A stretch of 12,371 nt of DNA from Octopus sinensis (GCF_006345805.1 NW_021826557.1:1-12371), one strand, 5' to 3'. Positions 3,382 to 12,371 are shown, counted from the stretch's first letter. Made by a program: numbers and translations. The notes: generated by a model not told the origin, from the sequence alone.

Positions 3382-3760
3382 CTATAACAAATAACCTTCT
3401 TAATAAATTACTGCTATAATGTTTTAGAGTGTACTTCTTTTTCGTATATGTGAACTACTGACGATATATATATGTAATATATACATGATTCAGGTAAATA
3501 AGGCACTTAAATGGTAAAGCGCCGGTTGAGCCAGAATTAAAATGCATATACAGCAATAATAGCCGAATAGCAATATTGGTACAGATGTACTGACAGAAAG
3601 ATATTTAGGTTATGTATACAATTAATTGAAGCCAACTAAATATATCATCAGTCCTTGGGCTAATTCAGAAACGCACATTATATTAAATATACGGAACACG
3701 CGAGGAGCAGGCTCCGAGAGAGGTGAATCATAAATAAATAACAAACGATGGAGAGGTGTC

Positions 3761-3847
3761 AATTCATTACAGCTGTTTCCAACGAAGTTTTTAATTGATT
3801 AATCAATACTTTTATCATTATAAAATCCCATTTTCTTCAGATGAATT
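3761..3847 (-). ncRNA. Type I hammerhead ribozyme motif (intact core, long stem II region)
   Basis: The minus strand reads aattcat-CTGAAGA-[54 nt]-GAAAC-AGCT-GTA-atgaatt. Stem I is 7 bp, the stem III loop is palindromic and the triplet is GUA. Confidence 0.7.
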
Positions 3848-3978
3848 CAAGAATTATACAATTAAGATCATTTAAAAACCTTTTAAATCCTCAGCATCTA
3901 CATATTTAGTGAATCCATTATCGTCGTGAAATCACTAAATATGCACATGCCGGAGATTTAAAATTTAAAATTCGTCTT

Positions 3979-4068
3979 TTCATCTGAAGAAAACGGTCGG
4001 TTATTTTAAATAATGATATAATGTACTCATTAATCAATTAAAAACTTCATTGGAACAGCTGTAATGAA
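3979..4068 (+). ncRNA. Type I hammerhead ribozyme motif (one A lost from GAAA)
   Basis: ttcat-CTGAAGA(3984-3990)-[62 nt]-GAAC-AGCT-GTA-atgaa. This is the mirror copy of 3761-3847. Confidence 0.6.
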
Positions 4069-4227
4069 TTGGCACCTATCCATCATTTGTTATATATATA
4101 TATAATGTTAAGTATAATTTAAAATGTATGGGCTATTTATGAAGTGTTCATAGAGAGCCAATGCGAAAAAATACAGAGTATATATATGTGTATATATACA
4201 GAGTATATATATGTGTGTATATACCAT

Positions 4228-4360
4228 ATCACCTGAAGAAATGAAAGGATGAATGAAGACCCTCATGATGGCTATAGATATTACGGATTGAACTGTAATC
4301 ATACCAGGAATAAGAACTAAGGTGGTAAGAAACGTGATGTGTGGAAACGCGCGTAGCGAT
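4228..4360 (+). ncRNA. Type I hammerhead-like motif with very long stem II region
   Basis: atcac-CTGAAGA(4233-4239)-[104 nt]-GAAAC-GCGC-GTA(4344-4355)-gcgat. Stem I pairs at 4 of 5 positions. Confidence 0.55.
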
Positions 4361-4650
4361 GCATTAGAATATTTATAAATTCTATCTATGGATTATTATC
4401 GTTATTACTATATTTGTCCTACGTAATATCGGCACAGCTCGGTAGAACCCCATAAATTTGCTGTTACAAGTTGGTATCGTTAGGCAGGAGCCGGCATAAT
4501 AAAATAGGAGCTTTTATATGGATATTCAAAAACGTTTCCCGTAAACTAACTTAGAGGATATATATATATAGTTTAATGTTTAAAATACCATAATAAAAAA
4601 ACTTGAAAACCAGACCATGTTTAAACTTTATTCAACTGATATATATACAT

Positions 4651-5124
4651 ATATATAAACATATGCATATATACATACATATATGTACATACCTACATCT
4701 ATATGTATATATACATGCATATATGGGTACAGGACATAAAAAAACGTAAGGACTATGAGAAACGAAAACATGGAAACAAACTTTTTTTCAAACAACGAAA
4801 GAACAGAGTACAAGATATACAACACAAGGAATATTCCTCTTCTTTAGTTGTCCCTGTTTCGTCTACTCCGCGTACCTTCGCAACGCAGTGTAGACGAATC
4901 AGGGAGAACTGAAGAAGGGGAATATTCCTTGTGTTGTATGTCTTGTACTCTGTTTTTCCGTTGTTTGAAAAAAAGATCGTTTCCATGTTTTTGTTTTTAT
5001 GTTTTTGTTTCTCATTGTGTTCAGCGTTTTATTTTTGGTGTCCTGTACCCATATATGAATGTATATATACATATAGATGTAGGTATGCACATATATGTGT
5101 GTATACATGCATATGTTTATATAT
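4651..5124. repeat. ~474-bp fold-back palindrome between TA-rich flanks (probably PLE-terminus derived)
   Basis: 4651-4873 is the imperfect reverse complement of 4883-5124, with a ~9-nt loop. The mirrored ORF translations (4628..4825- vs 4931..5143+; 4753..4986- vs 4848..5312+) confirm the symmetry. The PLE origin is inference. Confidence 0.9.
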
Positions 5125-5172
5125 TATTTATGTTATTATATGATCGAACGCCACGCATCCATTTCCAAGTAA

Positions 5173-5174
<2 letters not shown>

Positions 5175-5267
<93 letters not shown>

Positions 5268-5440
5268 GTATGTAATGTATGTATACGCAAATATACATTC
5301 AGAGATATATAAGAGCACACACACACACATATATATATATATTCACACACACACACACTCGTATATATATATAGGCATACATACATATGCATACACGGAT
5401 GCATACATGCATGCGTACATATGTATATGTGTGTGTATGA
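5175..5440. repeat. Compound (TC)n(TA)n and degenerate CA/TA/TATG microsatellite tract
   Basis: Direct inspection. Confidence 0.9.
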
Positions 5441-5859
5441 GTATGTTTCGCTGAAATGAATGAGATAGATAATAATATACTTAGGATTATGTTGTAGCAT
5501 TATTTTGGAGTATTATAGATGTATCTAAGTATATAAATGTGATCGCAGAGATAATAGTATTTCGGATGCCAGAGAATAGTGACGTCGAAAACACCTTGGT
5601 ATTAATTTAACAAGAGTTGCGTGATTTAGGTGAGCAGGTGTGGCTCTAAAGAAACAGGCATCAATGGTCACTGAGAAGCTAAAGAGTACCAAAGAAGTAA
5701 AGGAAGAACTTTCATATTTTCTGGTGGTTTTCATTGCATTTTAGACATTGGAAGTAAAGGCTAGGTTGGCAGTTGATAGAAAATTCCTTTTAAAGAAACT
5801 AGGACACAGTATACGTATGCTTTCGTAGATTAAGACCACTCTTCAGAGGATGATATATT

Positions 5860-6376
5860 TATTTCTTTATTGCCCACAAGTGGTTAAACCCACTGCACAA
5901 CTGGTACTTATTTTATCGACCCCGAAAGGATGAAAGGTAAAGTCGACCTCGGCGAAATTGAACTCAGAACGTAACAATAGACGAAATACCTATTTCTTTA
6001 CTGCCCACAAGGGGCTACACAATGAGGGGACAAACAAGGACAGACAAACGGATTAAGTCGATTATATCGACCCCAGTGCGCAACTGGTATTTATTTAATC
6101 GACTCCGAAAGGATGAAAAGCAATGTCGACCTCGGCGGAATTTGAACTCAGAACGTAATGGCAGACGAAATACCTATTTCTATTTCTTTACTACCCACAA
6201 AGGGCTAAACACAGAGAGGACAAACAAGGGCAGACAAACGGATTAAGTCGATTACATCGACCCCAGTGCGTAACTGGTACTTAATTTATCGACCCTAAAA
6301 GGATGAAAGGCAAAGTCGACCTCGGCAGAATTTGAACTCAGACGAAATACGGCTAAGCATTTCAGCCGGCGTGCTA
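5860..6376 (-). mobile_element. Head-to-tail trimer of a tRNA-derived SINE (one partial head, three bodies)
   Basis: Units are 5860-5990 (internally deleted), 5991-6174 and 6175-6376. Each contains atcgaccccgaaaggatgaaaggcaaagtcgacctcggc..ttgaactcaga or a close variant. The central block resembles the Deu/Nin SINE domain. Confidence 0.9.
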
Positions 6377-6583
6377 GTCGGTTGGTTGCACACATCAGCA
6401 AATAGTCTTGGTTTAGGTGTGACAACAATGCCGAAAAATTTGCTGTTCCAAAGTTTCTTACGCTAATGAATCGTGCTTGTTATGAAAACTCATTCCCCTG
6501 AACTGAAAGGTTGTTTTCCATTGACGAAATACAATAACAATCAGTGCAGTCTCGTTCCAGTCTGCTGGAACGTTATAAGAATA

Positions 6584-6604
6584 CACACACACACACACAT
6601 ACGC

Positions 6605-6670
<66 letters not shown>

Positions 6671-6685
6671 CACACACACCATACA

Positions 6686-6754
<69 letters not shown>
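6584..6754. repeat. Long interrupted (CA)n microsatellite
   Basis: Direct inspection. It explains the HT/CV-repeat ORFs. Confidence 0.97.
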
Positions 6755-6761
<7 letters not shown>

Positions 6762-7103
6762 ATGAGAGGTAATGGTGTCATTGAGACCCAAAGGTGTCAG
6801 GTAATGCTGAATAAGTGCTATAGATAGACCACAGTTATCGGTGATTATGCGAATAAGGGGTTCAAAGTTGGTCATATGTCAGCGTGTGTATATAAATTTG
6901 TTTCGTAATGAGATAAAAGGACCAAGGCTGTGTAGATTTTAGAACATTTATAGATATGAATCTTGTATGTATACCATTCTGCCTAAAAAAAAAGGATCTA
7001 CTAATACAATGTCCCTACACATCAAACATCTATTTTCTTTCCTCCACCTCACTCTCTATTTTGTATCTATTTTGTAACTATTACTTAACCATTTTCTCAC
7101 ACC

Positions 7104-7151
7104 GTCTCCGATGAAGGGATATAATAAATATCCTGGAAACAGCTGTTAGAC
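7104..7151 (+). ncRNA. Minimal PLE-type hammerhead ribozyme relic
   Basis: gtct-CCGATGA(U4 changed to C)-a-GGGATAT aataa ATATCCT-g-GAAAC-AGCT-GTT-agac. Stem I is gtct/agac, stem II is 7 bp and the stem III loop is palindromic. Confidence 0.75.
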
Positions 7152-7153
7152 CT

Positions 7154-7383
7154 ATTTTTTTACTACCCACAAGGGGCTAAACACAGAGGAGGCGAACAAG
7201 GACAGACAAACGGATTAAGTCGGTTACATCGACCCCAGTGCGTAACTGGTACTTAATTTATCGACCCCGAAAGGATGAAAGGCAAAGTCGACCTCGGAGG
7301 ATTTTGAACTTAGAACGTAACGGCAGACGAAATACTGCTAAGCGTTTCGCCCGGTGTGCTAACGTTTCTGCCAGCTCGCCGCC
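7154..7383 (-). mobile_element. Full-length tRNA-derived SINE (family of 5860-6376)
   Basis: The minus strand reads ggcggcgagctggcagaaacgttagcac (A box) ... agttcaaaatcc (B box) ... gtcgactttgcctttcatcctttcggggtcgataaattaagtaccag ... A-rich tail. A probable decayed TSD lies at 7137-7153 and 7384-7398. Confidence 0.9.
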
Positions 7384-7449
7384 AAACGGCTGGGACCTTC
7401 TATCTATAATGTTCTAAAATTTAAACTTTTTTTTTTTATTTCATTACCG

Positions 7450-7511
7450 TATATATATATATATTATATATATATATATATATATAATATATATGTATAT
7501 ATATATATATA
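7450..7511. repeat. (TA)n microsatellite
   Basis: Direct inspection. Confidence 0.9.
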
Positions 7512-7603
7512 CCCTCCTTCTTTCTTTCTTTCTAGCGTCCATAATACTATATGTTCCAGACCTCGCGTTGTTGTGTTTTTGATTGCTTATTGTTTAGATT
7601 AAC

Positions 7604-7627
7604 TATATAATATATTATATAATATAT

Positions 7628-7661
<34 letters not shown>
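7604..7661. repeat. (TA)n microsatellite
   Basis: Direct inspection. Confidence 0.9.
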
Positions 7662-7664
<3 letters not shown>

Positions 7665-7892
7665 TATTAACCTAGCAGCAGAAGCAATCCACGTTTTATT
7701 TCTAAAACTCCTTCGGATAGTGTGGTGGGAACCCATGATGTTCAGTATGAATTTACGAGCAGGAACTTCAAATTCTCTCGGATGCTAGACTAGTTTAGTA
7801 GCACCCTGCACTGTACTATATTAATACACTTATATCAAACACAGACAGAAAGATACACACACATAGATATACATAGATACAATGGTCATCTT

Positions 7893-8028
7893 TAAGCTTC
7901 TGTCTACCAAATCCACTCTCAAGACTTTGGTCGGCCCGAGGCTATAGTAGAAAACACTTGTCCAAGGTTTCAGTTTCACGTAGTGGGACTGAAACTCTAA
8001 CCATCTGGTTGGGAAGCAAGCTTCTTAT
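7893..8028 (-). mobile_element. tRNA-derived SINE
   Basis: gtctaccaaatccactctcaagactttggtcggcccgaggctatagtagaaaacacttgtccaagg...tagtgggactgaaac...ggttgggaagcaagcttctta, homologous to 2037-2168. Confidence 0.8.
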
Positions 8029-9056
8029 CTGCGCCTTTGTACAATTATTAAGCGATTCCTGCCTAATTCTTCCCTTGTTAATCCTTCTTTATTTCCACCT
8101 TTTCCTCCTCATCATCTGCACTAGAGAGAATGATGATAATGACGGTGGTGATCTACATACAACGTCCCTAGTAGTGGTAATGTTGATGGAAGTTACAGTG
8201 ACGAAACATCTGTTTCAATAGAGACAGTATACATTGTTCAGCTCACTCTCTATTTCCCATATTGCTAAAATATGCAAATTCGCGCTTACTTTTTATCCCT
8301 CTCTCCCTCAGTTTGCCTGCCTGTCTGTTTGTCTGTCTGTCTATCTATCTCTCTCCCTCTCTCTTCCTTTCCTCCCCCTCTTCCTTCTGTGTTCATCTTA
8401 TATAAATTATATTTACTCACATTTAAGCTTTATCCATTTTAGTGAACCGACATATATCCTATATTCCCAATTGTATCATATACAATATAGACCAACTGAA
8501 GGAGTTATTAACTTTGTTATTCTCGACCTCAAATTATTTTTATCTAGCCTATATATTTACATCCTACCCACCTTCACACTCACCTAACCTCTACACCTCA
8601 CGCACCACATTAAATGACATTTCCTGGCTGAAGCCCCAGCCTAGTGACAATTCTAATGATAACGTATTAAATTATATAATTTTGTATAAATTTTTTCGTC
8701 TTATTTTATTGCAATTTATTTCTTATTTAAGGTGCCTAAGACGTGTTTTGGTGTTTCATTCTTTCTTGGCCTAGTTTTATAATATCCTTTTTGTTGCTGT
8801 GTGTATATATATATACATTTGTTCTGCATTTATTTTTTGCATTTTATCATTATGTTTTTTTACGATCAATGTTAGGAACTTTATTCTTTACTTCTGTGTA
8901 TTCTGATGCTCTGGTGGTCTGGCTAGCATCTGTCTGTTAGTTTATCAACTGTCTCATCATCCCACCTCCTTCTCTTCCTCCAGTTCATATTCATGCACAT
9001 TTACGCACAAATACATTGTCTACCATTAACTTTTACCACCACTCTGTACGTTGCAG

Positions 9057-9333
9057 ACGATTTATACAGCTTCACGGAAATGCTTGAGAACTGGTTTGTT
9101 CCCTAAGCAGACTTACAAAGCCGATCTGAATCGTTACACGAAGATATGAGATAGTGAAATGTGCTAAATTCCATACGATGGAATATTTTACGCTTTTGGC
9201 AAGATGTCGATAAGCAAATCTCTCAAAATTGATAATATCTTTGCGAAGCTTTCACAGATTTATGTGATATAATGTCGCGAATCTTTAAATATATGTGATG
9301 AAAATGATTATGCAACAACGGTTTCTAGAACAG
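9057..9333 (+). other. Possible exon of a host transcript (non-coding, or 5'UTR plus first 10 codons)
   Basis: Acceptor ttaac...actctgtacgttgcag| and donor CAG|gtatgt in non-repetitive sequence. aaaATG at 9304 gives MIMQQRFLEQ ending in phase 0. There is no homology support. Confidence 0.2.
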
Positions 9334-9657
9334 GTATGTATAGTAGCACTTTATACAAAGGAAACAATCTAACAGGGACATAATTGGAAAATTCTGCTCA
9401 ACGTCCAACAAGTAATGTAAAATCATTTCCGTTTATTCAGCAAGTTACAGATTCTGGAGTATCTTGGAAGTTTACAGTCTGATATAAAATATGAATAATG
9501 TTACAGAAATAGTATATATTTTCATGTATCTGCTCATGCGCAACGATCCGGATGCCTATATTGTATTTAGGAAACAAAATCTTGTTCCGAGTATAAACTG
9601 TGGTTTTCCTATCTATTTAGTGACTAGATATATTCGGAGAAACCTACTGAAGCTACA

Positions 9658-9890
9658 AGTATGGTTGGGTCGTGAAGAAGTTAGCTTCAAGCTATGTGAT
9701 TTCAGGTTCAGTCCTATTGCGTGGCATCTTGGGCAAGTAATACCTACTATATCCGCGGGCCAATCAATGTATTGTGGGTTTGCATTTAAATCGCATTGCA
9801 TGGCAACATGGGTTAGTTTGATCGACTAAACCCTTTAAGACAGAGCCCCGGCATAACCGCAATCCAATGAATGAAACAAATAAAGGAATA
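9658..9890 (+). mobile_element. Decayed tRNA-derived SINE, possibly joined to the tail of a second family
   Basis: gaagaagttagcttc...caggttcagtcctattgcgtggcatcttgggcaagt...ctactatatccgcgggccaatcaa..ttgtgggtttgcattt, followed by a tail like that at 280-340. Confidence 0.65.
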
Positions 9891-10062
9891 TATTTTGTCG
9901 GCACATGAAGTCAATTGGCTTTTACTTAAGACGACTATTCGACTGAAGTATATTTCTGATATATATATTCTATTGATCTCAATAGTGAAATGAATGTTAA
10001 ACCCTCTGTGTCCATGACACTAATCTTCAGGGTCTGCTAAAACCATGCACAAACATCTAGAT

Positions 10063-10408
10063 CAGGGGTTCTCAACCATTTGTTATCTATGGACCACTTT
10101 ACTATTTTATTCTGATGGAGCCCCATAGCCATTTGATGTTTAAAAACTAGTTTTAAAGAAATTTCTTTCAGAATTCCTATTTTTGTTTTTCACACATTAA
10201 CTTGTGTAGATTGAGCAACGTAAAATGTTAGAGAAAGAAACCTAGCTGCTTCTTGCAATGCACACCAATACATAGACCTAAAGCAAAATTTTTTCAGGGG
10301 CCCTTAAAATACTATTGTGGATCTTCAATTTACTATTTTGTTGTTTGGAGCCCACAAAATCTTATATGGACCCTCAGGGGCCATATGGACCTCGGTTGAC
10401 AGCCACTG
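10063..10408. mobile_element. Non-autonomous hAT (Charlie-like) DNA transposon / MITE, 346 bp
   Basis: TIRs are CAGGGGTTCTCAACC (10063-10077) and GGTTGACAGCCACTG (10394-10408), matching at 12 of 15 positions. The 8-bp flanks atctagat / cttttgat match at 5 of 8, and the left one fits the NTCTAGAN Charlie target. Subterminal tatggacc repeats occur at both ends. Confidence 0.8.
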
Positions 10409-10803
10409 CTTTTGATCAAGCAATGAAGGTAAATGGACCCACATTAAAGTGGAGTGTGAACGGAGAAGAAAATAAAACATTCTCCCGTAACTGAGCTAGG
10501 AACTCTATCGTTTTTACCAAATAACTGGTGCCCAAATATTCAAACGAATTGTAAATATAAATAGTATATAAAATATGTAATGCATATATAAGATATATTA
10601 TATTTCTATCATCTCTCTCTCAAGTTTTTCTGGAACAAGTGAATTAGCTCCTGAGATTCAGCGTGAAAAATTACATCAATACACTAAATTTGAAAATTTT
10701 AACTTAACTTTAAAATTTAAAAAAGTGCAGCCAAACAGAGAATATCCTATATAAGCATATAAAACTGTGTTTGTGTTATTAAGATATATTGATACTCGGT
10801 ATG

Positions 10804-10804
<1 letters not shown>

Positions 10805-10831
<27 letters not shown>
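10805..10831. repeat. (TG)n microsatellite abutting the PLE terminus
   Basis: Direct inspection. Confidence 0.95.
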
Positions 10832-10834
<3 letters not shown>

Positions 10835-10868
10835 AAATCAAAATAAGCAACAGGGATATCCAGAGGTA

Positions 10869-10956
10869 ATGCAGTACGATCGTTTCAAGCAACTCCATTT
10901 AATCGAACAATGCAATCATTACATTGATTTAAATGCAGAGCAATCCTCAGCAGCAT
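10869..10956 (-). ncRNA. Type I hammerhead ribozyme motif (intact core) in PLE terminal repeat
   Basis: The minus strand reads atgctg-CTGAGGA-[57 nt folding as catttaaatc/gattaaatg and caatgtaa/ttgcattg]-GAAAC-GATC-GTA-ctgcat. Stem I pairs at 5 of 6 positions, or 6 of 6 using the atgcag of the inverted copy at 12314-12319. Confidence 0.75.
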
Positions 10957-10960
10957 AAAG

Positions 10961-12135
10961 ATGTTCTTTCGCCTTAGCGCTCCCTTATTAAATACCAGAA
11001 AATGCCAGTTGATCAATCTCCATAGACACCATCTAAATAGTTTATATTTAAGTATATAATATGTATAAATATTAAACTATTTCTATGTAATTTCTTTTCC
11101 CCCCTCTAATGTGGTAACATGTGGTTTATACTCAAAAGTACTTAAAGAAATTTTATCGTTTTGTTATAAGATTATTCTTAATAATCTTCTTGGTAGCCCT
11201 AAATTTTAACTTTATACAATATAGCTATATTGTTTAAAATGGTTTTAGTAATTACTTTATTTATCCATTTCTTAAAGAGTTCCACTCTCCTGTTCTTAGT
11301 ATTTATATTGGCCTTTATGCAAGTAGCCCTTCTAACATCAATATTCCTTTAGCTAATACCAGGTATTAGTATTTATTGATACATGCTAAATAAGTTAATA
11401 AACATTTTTAGTTTATAATACTTAAATTATTATACATTTTCTATAAATCTTCTCTATTGATGTTAATAAGGTATAAATACATTCTCATGGTTTTAGTGAT
11501 TAAGCTATTTTATTCCTTTCTATGGTGTTTTACCCTACCTGATCATTTCATTCTTTAATATAGCCTTTATAAAATAAATCTAATTTTTGTACTCTTATAA
11601 ATTCATACTTAGTTATATAAAACAATACCGATATCTTCACACCCAACTTAAAATAAACTGCGTAGATTATAATTTAATTAATATATAGTTAAAAGTTTTT
11701 TCGCCTCAGTGCTCCTTTATTAAATTACCAGTAAAATCCAATTGATCAATCTCCATAGATACAATCTAATAAGTTAATATTTAAGCATATAATATGTATA
11801 AATATAAAACTATCTTCTTAATAACCTTCCGAGTAACCCTAAATTTTAACTTTATACAATATGGCAATATTGTTTAAAATATTTAACTATAGAACCCCAT
11901 GATAAAAATTTCCCCTAATGGCTTGCCCCTTTAAATGTCAGCTAACTTCTTGATTTAAGATTTCCTTTACCAAATCTCATTATATTGTTTCAAATTAATC
12001 TTGATAGTTTTCTGACCATACCCACTATGATTTCTGTCGACTCCCCCAGCCCCCTTCCTAACATACATTGTTCCTTGTTTTTTGGCCTTAGATTCTGATA
12101 TACAAAGATTTGATAAAACAAATCTACAAATTAAA
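10961..12135 (-). pseudogene. Heavily decayed PLE reverse transcriptase plus start of GIY-YIG domain
   Basis: Motif remnants on the minus strand, read across frameshifts, occur in the expected order. They are FIKSLY (12117-12100; cf. DIKSLY), NNIMRFG, GQAIRG (cf. GLAMG), KIYRKC (11451-11434; cf. VYRKPT), RRATCI (11333-11316; cf. RAxRIC), LGLPRR (cf. LGYP), MLPH (cf. LPY), GVY (11030-11022) and KEH (10969-10961). No clear YxDD motif remains. Confidence 0.6.
11699..11880. repeat. Diverged direct duplicate of 10967-11240 lacking ~94 nt
   Basis: tttcgcct.ag.gctcc.ttattaaat...ttgatcaatctccataga...aaactat and ccctaaattttaactttatacaatat...tgtttaaaat are both shared. Positions 11081-11174 are absent from this copy. 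Confidence 0.9.
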
Positions 12136-12313
12136 ACTGACCCAAGAAAACAGTGACAAGCTGGGATTTCTAACCAAGTCTTTCTTCCTGATAACTTAGT
12201 AGCTGAAGTGAAGACAGCATGTTCTTTGTCTATCTCCTTACATCCTTGGAGGTTTTAGGTGAAATCATACTAATGTGTCCATCTGCTTTAATTTCATTAA
12301 ACTATATGTCTTT

Positions 12314-12371
12314 ATGCAGCTGGGGATTGCTCTGCATTTAAATCGATGTAATGATTGCATTGTTCATTTAA
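12314..12371 (+). ncRNA. 5' half of the inverted hammerhead copy (truncated by window end)
   Basis: atgcag-CTGGGGA (A6 changed to G)-ttgctctgcatttaaatcgatgtaatgattgcattgttc..., the mirror of 10869-10956. Confidence 0.55.

Follow-up and report, generated by a model that had tools for sequence, protein, structure and literature searches.

Penelope-like retrotransposons (Penelope-like elements, PLEs) of the Hydra clade carry type I hammerhead ribozymes on the sense strand near the 3' end, behind a gene for a reverse transcriptase (RT) that has a GIY-YIG endonuclease at its C-terminus (PMC8557442). The clade is marked by the motifs CxCX5C, CxxC and CxH, and its elements show 5' truncation, inverted copies, a 30-40-nt tail and microsatellite neighbours (PMC8557442). 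We analysed a stretch of 12,371 nucleotides from Octopus sinensis (NW_021826557.1; hereafter the window), one entire contig of a 2.72-Gb assembly, and observed hammerhead motifs of three families (A, B and C) whose elements appear to share these traits. They differ from the Hydra hammerheads tabulated in PMC8557442 in the length of helix II: ~12-26 nt lie between the core halves there, and 54-106 nt here. Helix III in that table is mostly 4 bp with a 1-3-nt loop, whereas the motifs here have a strict 8-nt palindrome, and the elements here are longer than the stated norm of <3 kb. We observed that this long-helix-II class exists, is family-wide and is very abundant in this genome.

The motifs also resemble the PLE hammerheads with a small palindromic helix III and the minimal hammerheads (min-HHRs) of Cervera and de la Pena 2014 (PMC4209133). 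Common to both are the CUGANGA core, a short helix I, a palindrome at helix III, an extra base after A9, thousands of truncated dispersed copies and many sequence families per genome. The descriptor given there accepts 3-7 bp in helix II plus 3-10 nt in its loop, a maximum of 26 nt, and has no loop III, whereas the motifs here combine their long arm (helix II) with a tetraloop III, and the conserved G10.1-C11.1 pair is replaced by A-G, A-A or U-U. By the published definition (no loop III, helix II plus loop <=26 nt) they are not min-HHRs. PMC4209133 lists the form with a 2-bp helix III and a palindromic tetraloop apart from that class, so the comparison with minimal hammerheads drawn in a preliminary description of this DNA does not hold.

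Enlarged PLE-borne type I hammerheads have a precedent in PLE-X1_sMoe and PLE-X1_sTam of spike mosses, with a loop 2 of 35 and 29 nt (~54 nt between the core halves in sMoe), flagged in PMC8557442 as deviating from canonical. Those are two single plant families, whereas we found tens of thousands of copies, dozens of designs, arms up to ~120 nt and covariation in one lineage. For cephalopods, our search of mostly open-access papers found no report of a long-arm class. A 'long' helix II in viral type I hammerheads is 6-8 bp (PMC13725137). Metazoan non-LTR (long terminal repeat) retrozymes share the type I form, the 2-bp helix III and the tetraloop (PMC7229834; bioRxiv 10.64898/2026.07.22.740005), and the axolotl form has a U-U mismatch at the base of helix II, as here, a pair already known at this position (PMC3088659, PMC7229834). 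Retrozymes are tandem units with short described arms, whereas families A, B and C are scattered copies of the ends of protein-coding elements, and none of the three consists of protein-free tandem units that each bear one hammerhead. Retrozyme-type tandem arrays do occur among the other long-arm families of this genome (L427, L428, L429 and L430; 404, 444 and ~600 bp), with units 97-99% alike and a helix II of 42-76 nt in each. We rejected the Naiad 'half cores' as long-arm hammerheads, because by eye the Naiad_Ovul end has GAAAC before CUGAUGA, which is another layout. In the supplement of PMC8557442 the 3' ends of Naiad_Ovul and Naiad_Obim show, by eye, GAAAC ~27 nt before CUGAUGA with complementary flanks, like a rearranged hammerhead.

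The window consists of repeats and microsatellites, with no real gene. A pattern scan confirmed three layouts made of CUGANGA, an insert of 54, 104 or 57 nt, GAAAC, a 4-nt palindrome, GUA and a closing helix I (Table 1). The coordinates and common layout reported in the preliminary description were thus recovered, except that the copy at 3979-4068 reads GGAAC rather than GAAAC and has a broken core. The complementarity reported for stem I was complete in the A1 copy and short of one pair each in B (A-C) and C1 (U-U), and in the family majority sequences these helix I positions are paired. The 21-nt helix II at 7115-7135 is present as described; the copy that bears it has CCGAUGA as its core and GUU as its site. 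We observed the type I hammerhead core (CUGANGA, GAAA, NUH, in type I order) in A1, B, C1 and the three family majorities; it was broken in A2 and C2. Judged by sequence, these motifs are real type I hammerheads that are predicted to self-cleave.

Strict core-plus-palindrome pairings at 40-150 nt numbered four in the window, three of them with helix I, and no dinucleotide shuffle yielded at least one such motif with helix I (0/2000). These shuffles, together with the genome-wide counts against controls, exclude a chance motif. Rfam returned no hammerhead family among 70 window matches at E up to 10 and the published descriptor ends at 26 nt, in line with the proposal that length-limited searches miss the class. 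The A and B inserts of the window folded no better than shuffles (z 0.12 and 0.23), and the C insert gave z -2.5. The A and B inserts are decayed copies, and the window copies are dead or decaying 5'-truncated insertions. A1/A2 and C1/C2 are inverted pairs of a kind common in these families.

To a proposal of high abundance, the genome-wide counts gave clear support. Across 80 evenly spaced 10-kb stretches (800 kb) we found nine strict motifs, eight of them at 42-77 nt and all different in sequence, compared to 0.3 motifs per set in ten shuffled sets. Permitting one core mismatch in these stretches added one motif, of 14 nt. Whole-genome counts of the pattern CTGANGA-N-GAAACNNNNGTH, with the reversed pattern as control, reached 19,034 for spacers of 5-35 nt (control 1,501), 38,637 for 36-65 nt (control 1,708), 13,240 for 66-95 nt (control 1,235) and 4,539 for 96-125 nt (control 1,636); matches may overlap, only tetraloop-III hammerheads are covered, and the two longest bins are mixed, with 9/30 and 12/30 sampled loci passing the helix I test compared to 19/30 for the set with an AGCT palindrome. 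Requiring AGCT at a spacer of 40-70 nt left 2,138 matches versus 1 in the control, and of the first 100 matches listed for 36-65 nt, roughly three quarters, counted by eye, had a palindromic tetramer. What can safely be said is that the 36-65-nt class by itself has twice as many members as the short class. Arms here are three to six times the usual length.

We then asked whether the long insert is a family trait. First-look genome candidates numbered 564 for A, 652 for B and 1,832 for C (40 scored each), and the insert was long in 30/30 best copies of every family, although these were retrieved with a long-form query, under which short siblings would rank lower. This excludes a copy-specific insertion and bears out the expectation of inserts shared family-wide. 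With 77-87% identity to the window copy, A and B are old, and C, with 94-96%, is young. The preliminary description had treated the three families as unrelated. We observed that the A and C helix II inserts align (score 49 vs 29.3 +/- 4.0 in 2000 shuffles, P = 0.001, ~0.006 after six comparisons), and the A profile scored a median of 8.2 bits on 34 inserts of the clusters formed by C and its kin, family E, compared to 1 or less on unrelated clusters. The B insert had no likeness to A or C (P = 0.25-0.32). Because A and C share a homologous helix II and B is unrelated in sequence, the window holds two designs, not three. Genome-wide, 140 long motifs fell into 39 clusters with arms of 42-120 nt, in a set that includes 58 loci chosen by family and some chance matches.

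A family with a 49-nt arm (L235, L239, L244, L251, L253 and L274) shares helix I, the palindrome and the basal helix II pairs with the 21-nt family D, so that short and long forms may interconvert inside one lineage; flank likeness between the two is weak. We did not adopt descent of the 49-nt family from D, with only 1/70 flank comparisons at z > 4.

The covariation check gave a graded answer: covariation of the arm is strong in the C lineage and weak in A, and in B none was detectable. For C/E helix II alone (22 distinct sequences), 88% of cells were paired and 8/16 pairs had changed on both sides; no shuffle reached this level (0/500) and slid controls were 29-49% paired, although both controls are inflated by the relatedness of the sequences and by a structure drawn from the same sequences. 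In the basal part of C/E helix II, 5/9 pairs covary. Helix II of A (26 sequences) was 76% paired. Helix II of B (29 sequences) was 87% paired, and the predicted fold of its majority sequence is a single long hairpin with interruptions (-31 kcal/mol). Next to the core, the first position of helix II is a mismatch instead of G-C. For neither A nor B did RNAalifold return helix II. With one copy per cluster, the median folding z over 39 clusters was -1.1 (20/39 below -1, 12/39 above 0). Compensatory changes on both sides of helix I were seen in 3/5 pairs of C/E and 2/5 pairs of A; helix I of B was 85% paired, with no excess over shuffles. Helix III is 2 bp with a palindromic tetraloop, and A15.1-U16.1 is invariant in the alignments of C/E, A and B. 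We also considered other roles for the insert. An intron within helix II was rejected, because by eye there is no plausible splice-site pair (C has a single GT..AG, 30 nt in span) and read joints that leave out helix II were not seen. A selenocysteine insertion sequence (SECIS) was rejected as well, as by eye a GA/GA core together with a helix of 10-13 bp is missing from every family.

By sequence context, families A, B and C are 3' ends of Penelope-like retrotransposons, with the link firmest for C and weakest for B. The endonuclease frame beside one C copy, used as query, gave 16,541 candidates, and in 16/30 loci a sense-strand hammerhead with a helix II of 46-60 nt lay 464-1,179 nt behind the endonuclease gene. 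These hammerheads constitute family E. In the long frames a reverse transcriptase is followed by a linker of the CxCX5C type and by a GIY-YIG end, in which CxxC stands before E and CxH after N. Each of the three motifs was found in 5/6 long E-type open reading frames (ORFs), and they also occur in the C-linked L346; for A and B they have decayed or lie outside the sequence in view. The linked endonucleases thus bear the motifs of the Hydra clade, which would place the elements in the Hydra clade, and a Neptune reading was dropped for Hydra on these published motifs. RWK/DKT at the RT N-terminus gave one DKT match in six regions (L205), the remaining regions being 5'-truncated. Pfam had no match for L174, and its hits in homologues were PF26215, one PF01541 and one PF00078.

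Upstream of C, a T-rich, partly duplicated untranslated region (UTR) of 2-3 kb led to an endonuclease in 5/30 loci, and endonuclease end, UTR and hammerhead were collinear in L334 and L342+L346; at another C locus, L228, the endonuclease was unrelated and inverted. For A, an endonuclease end lay ~1.3 kb upstream in L002, with the spacer common to L215 in the same order. For B, RT pieces lay upstream on the same strand in L045; L057 contains an endonuclease that is a candidate only, not established as part of the same element. Copies of A, B and C are scattered through the genome, and PLE genes are reached upstream of them. Left ends were ragged and right ends clustered 20-50 nt past the predicted cut, in agreement with the 30-40-nt tail given in PMC8557442. 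Second copies were present in 7, 7 and 16 of 30 A, B and C loci, nearly all inverted, with the window among the seven A loci. Ragged left ends, clustered right ends and inverted partners are as described for Penelope-like insertions. A dinucleotide run lay <=240 nt from the cut in 25/30 C copies, 21 of them (TA)n, in keeping with the (TA)n insertion of Hydra-clade elements, a count for which no background rate was taken. The 3' UTR of family C has an internal repeat of ~830 bp in two or three copies (L342, L346, L320, L323). L201-L206 have Hydra-type open frames of 577-787 codons, in which an Asn-rich stretch doubles the distance from the RT to the zinc linker.

Relatives elsewhere have short arms. 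Among 78 metagenome loci encoding relatives, of which 52 had at least 150 nt of 3' sequence, 25 had a hammerhead behind the gene, at 80-533 nt (median 129), with a helix II of 10-30 nt (median 18) and 4-6 nt inside the first two pairs of helix III. In the octopus, the distance from ORF to hammerhead was 464-1300 nt or more, and the 3' UTR was 4 to 10 or more times longer than in these relatives. The RT catalytic motif and CxCX5C were 430, 440 and 461 aa apart in 3/4 ORFs measured (one without a value), compared to a median of 212 in 76 homologues, and linker Asn was 16-21% vs 8.6%. Hydra-1_Obim, a compact published octopus element of 2,507 bp, has a 23-nt arm (PMC8557442). These data suggest that the arm likely grew along with the rest of the element. 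In most of the metagenome relatives (L349-L426), helix III is 4 bp long and closes a loop of 1-2 nt, often without a palindrome, and the octopus motifs examined, with a search pattern that admitted 4-nt loops only, have the 8-nt palindrome.

On balance we favour, with somewhat better than even confidence, the following reading. The motifs are type I hammerheads at the 3' ends of Hydra-clade PLEs, with a predicted cut after GUA that is likely aided by a dimer or a protein, and the long helix II is likely tolerated bulk kept folded by selection. The element transcript would end in the hammerhead. The 2-bp helix III would be too weak alone, and the 8-nt palindrome could pair two copies. The predicted probability of the monomer helix III was 0.04 or less in 9/9 copies folded, and the palindrome duplex was worth -6.4 to -13.3 kcal/mol; an unstable monomer helix III with a well-pairing palindrome would make dimer or protein-assisted cleavage likely. 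In the established hammerhead structure, helices II and III are stacked, and helix II is directed away from the core. For this reason helix II could take insertions while folded, and it may have lengthened together with every other tolerant part of the elements. Mispaired arms would invade the core, which would explain the compensatory changes. The doubled protein linker and the much longer 3' UTR favour tolerated growth over a new function.

Several results weigh against this reading. The gene links of A and B come from one or two loci each. Covariation was marginal in A (3-21/500 shuffles as high) and not above shuffles in the 29 sequences of B (104/500 as high). Only a few families and a single compact element from the literature underlie the growth correlation, which is not tree-based. 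The predicted active fold lay 3.8-17.9 kcal/mol above the minimum in 9/9 copies, and the dimer step may be unneeded, as invertebrate retrozyme hammerheads with the same helix III are described as cutting well as monomers (PMC7229834). Family C RNA reads (596, 669 and 393 from ~6% of three runs) covered both strands with no end pile-up at the cut, a weak blank, since the reads come from many copies, from fragmented libraries and from a run whose organism code differs from that of the best DNA source. Among the listed sequencing runs that contain the stretch, none is registered as RNA. Insertion pieces starting at the cut were likewise not seen (0 starts at +0 to +9 for C, A and E).

Conservation at the far end of the arm also exceeds what bulk requires. 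No helix of C/E is better kept than the tip hairpin, which lies ~20 bp from the core (96% paired, 3/7 pairs changed on both sides), and a UGYAAU/UAUAAU-like tip sequence is common to A, C and E. These features would be expected if the far end of helix II were a working module that activates or speeds a weak hammerhead, either by docking on the internal loop in helix I or by binding a protein (the RT-endonuclease of the element, or a host protein for double-stranded RNA). We consider this possible but doubtful. The C/E arm is steady at 55-60 nt across subfamilies that differ in helix I and palindrome, helix I of family C can be extended past its internal loop by six pairs in the predicted fold, and the hammerhead of an Anolis element is described as cutting only with its own protein (PMC11167929). 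However, arm length and sequence vary among the 39 clusters, the divergent E copy L204 has a different tip sequence, and by eye no tip-to-flank pairing is kept in all subfamilies. Short-arm families with the same palindrome and helix III thrive in the same genome, which speaks against a working module and also led us to reject the long helix II as compensation for a short helix III.

Alternatively, the long arm could act as a brake, with its 3' strand pairing over the cleavage site so that the ribozyme stays off until refolding. RNAalifold predicted a hairpin over the 3' half of the core in E subfamilies and B, and for copy A2 of the window such a hairpin was the fold of lowest energy. The E hairpin is broken in family C, and masking of the cleavage site did not differ between native and swapped arm ends (-2.47 vs -2.41 kcal/mol mean, P = 0.39, 28 family representatives). 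A built-in off-switch fold is thus not general, and we judge a brake unlikely.

The missing cut in RNA reads and insertion ends could also mean that the motifs are non-cutting relics whose core is kept for another reason, such as marking the start of reverse transcription. An Anolis element is reported to insert in vitro without cleavage (PMC11167929), and 8/9 Xenopus retrozyme dimers are reported as uncut in vitro (bioRxiv 10.64898/2026.07.22.740005). Against this, the core letters are all fixed while helices I, II and III change in pairs, and long arms occur in young retrozyme-type tandem arrays, which are thought to need cleavage. Long arms in near-identical arrays suggest that the arm does not stop the ribozyme and are an indirect sign of activity. 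We regard relics as very improbable.

Compared to tolerated bulk, a bolder proposal goes further. In the Hydra elements and retrozyme parasites of this lineage, a selected, folded helix II appendage would control cleavage by binding a protein or by docking, much as engineered stem-II switches do but of natural origin, in ~40,000-50,000 motifs that would be most of the genome's hammerheads of this core type and invisible to published searches. We hold this to be rather improbable.

The abundant class missed by standard searches is a variant of a known ribozyme in a known retrotransposon clade. Animal hammerhead censuses rest on descriptors that end at ~26 nt in helix II, a length surpassed here by two thirds or more of the motifs with this core. 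Such censuses can therefore be wrong, as can claims that a given element 'lacks' a hammerhead. The natural arm designs, which number in the dozens, together with young copies and a subfamily series, offer a ready test of the role of the hammerhead in Penelope-like elements, and they bear on whether it needs a partner RNA or the protein of the element. If the arm is only tolerated bulk, the result is a useful annotation correction and no more.

Table 1. Hammerhead copies and neighbouring element parts in the window.
Feature	Position	Strand	Evidence or detail
Tail and 3' extension of family A element past the hammerhead	3551-3760	-	Other A copies match over up to 215 nt
Family A hammerhead, copy A1	3761-3847	-	Pattern scan, family alignment, pair counts
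A1 helix I	3847-3841/3767-3761	-	7/7 pairs
A1 core CUGAAGA; helix II; GAAAC-AGCU-GUA	3840-3834; 3833-3780; 3779-3768	-	Helix II 54 nt
A1 predicted cut	Between 3768 and 3767	-	
5'-truncated upstream stubs of two head-to-head A copies	3848-3978		Self-inverted stretch 3881-3963
Family A hammerhead, copy A2, inverted partner of A1	3979-4068	+	Pattern scan
A2 CUGAAGA; insert; broken core GGAAC-AGCU-GUA	3984-3990; core ending 4063	+	Insert 61-62 nt
Family B hammerhead	4228-4360	+	Pattern scan, family alignment
B helix I	4228-4232/4356-4360	+	4/5 pairs, one A-C mismatch
B CUGAAGA; helix II; GAAAC-GCGC-GUA	4233-4239; 4240-4343; 4344-4355	+	Helix II 104 nt; family majority 106
B predicted cut	After 4355	+	
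Tail and 3' extension of family B element	4361-4570	+	Other B copies match for as much as 215 nt from 4356
Short-arm hammerhead of family D, for comparison	7104-7151	+	
D CCGAUGA (U4C core); helix II; GAAAC-AGCU-GUU	7108-7114; 7115-7135; 7136-7147	+	Helix II 21 nt
Tail of family C copy	10832-10868	-	~40 nt, (CA)n/(TG)n run at end
Family C hammerhead, copy C1, inverted, 5'-truncated	10869-10956	-	Helix I 5/6 pairs, one U-U
C1 CUGAGGA; helix II; GAAAC-GAUC-GUA	10950-10944; 10943-10887; 10886-10875	-	Helix II 57 nt
C1 predicted cut	Between 10875 and 10874	-	
Family C element 3' UTR, non-coding, T-rich, internal duplication	10960-12313	+	In other copies 3' of GIY-YIG endonuclease end (L334, L342+L346, L343)
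Family C hammerhead, copy C2 (fifth copy), helix I strand; broken core CUGGGGA	12314-12371; core 12320-12326	+	Helix II interrupted by contig end

Three further features of the window were observed. A fold-back of ~470 bp at 4651-5124, with arms 4651-4743/5032-5124 (94%) and 4760-4873/4883-4996 (89%), resembles a miniature inverted-repeat transposable element (MITE) or an inverted element pair; in its right arm GAAAC stands shortly before CUGAAGA (about 4887-4914), which is not type I order. At 833-899, the + strand has CUGAAGA (833-839) and GAAAC (858-862) without the usual palindrome-GUH, and the - strand has CUGAUGA (899-893), possibly a rearranged or decayed hammerhead. Tandem units of ~186-190 bp occupy 5849-6363 and 7150-7335, and one of them begins exactly where helix I of the short-arm hammerhead (7104-7151) ends, replacing the hammerhead tail.

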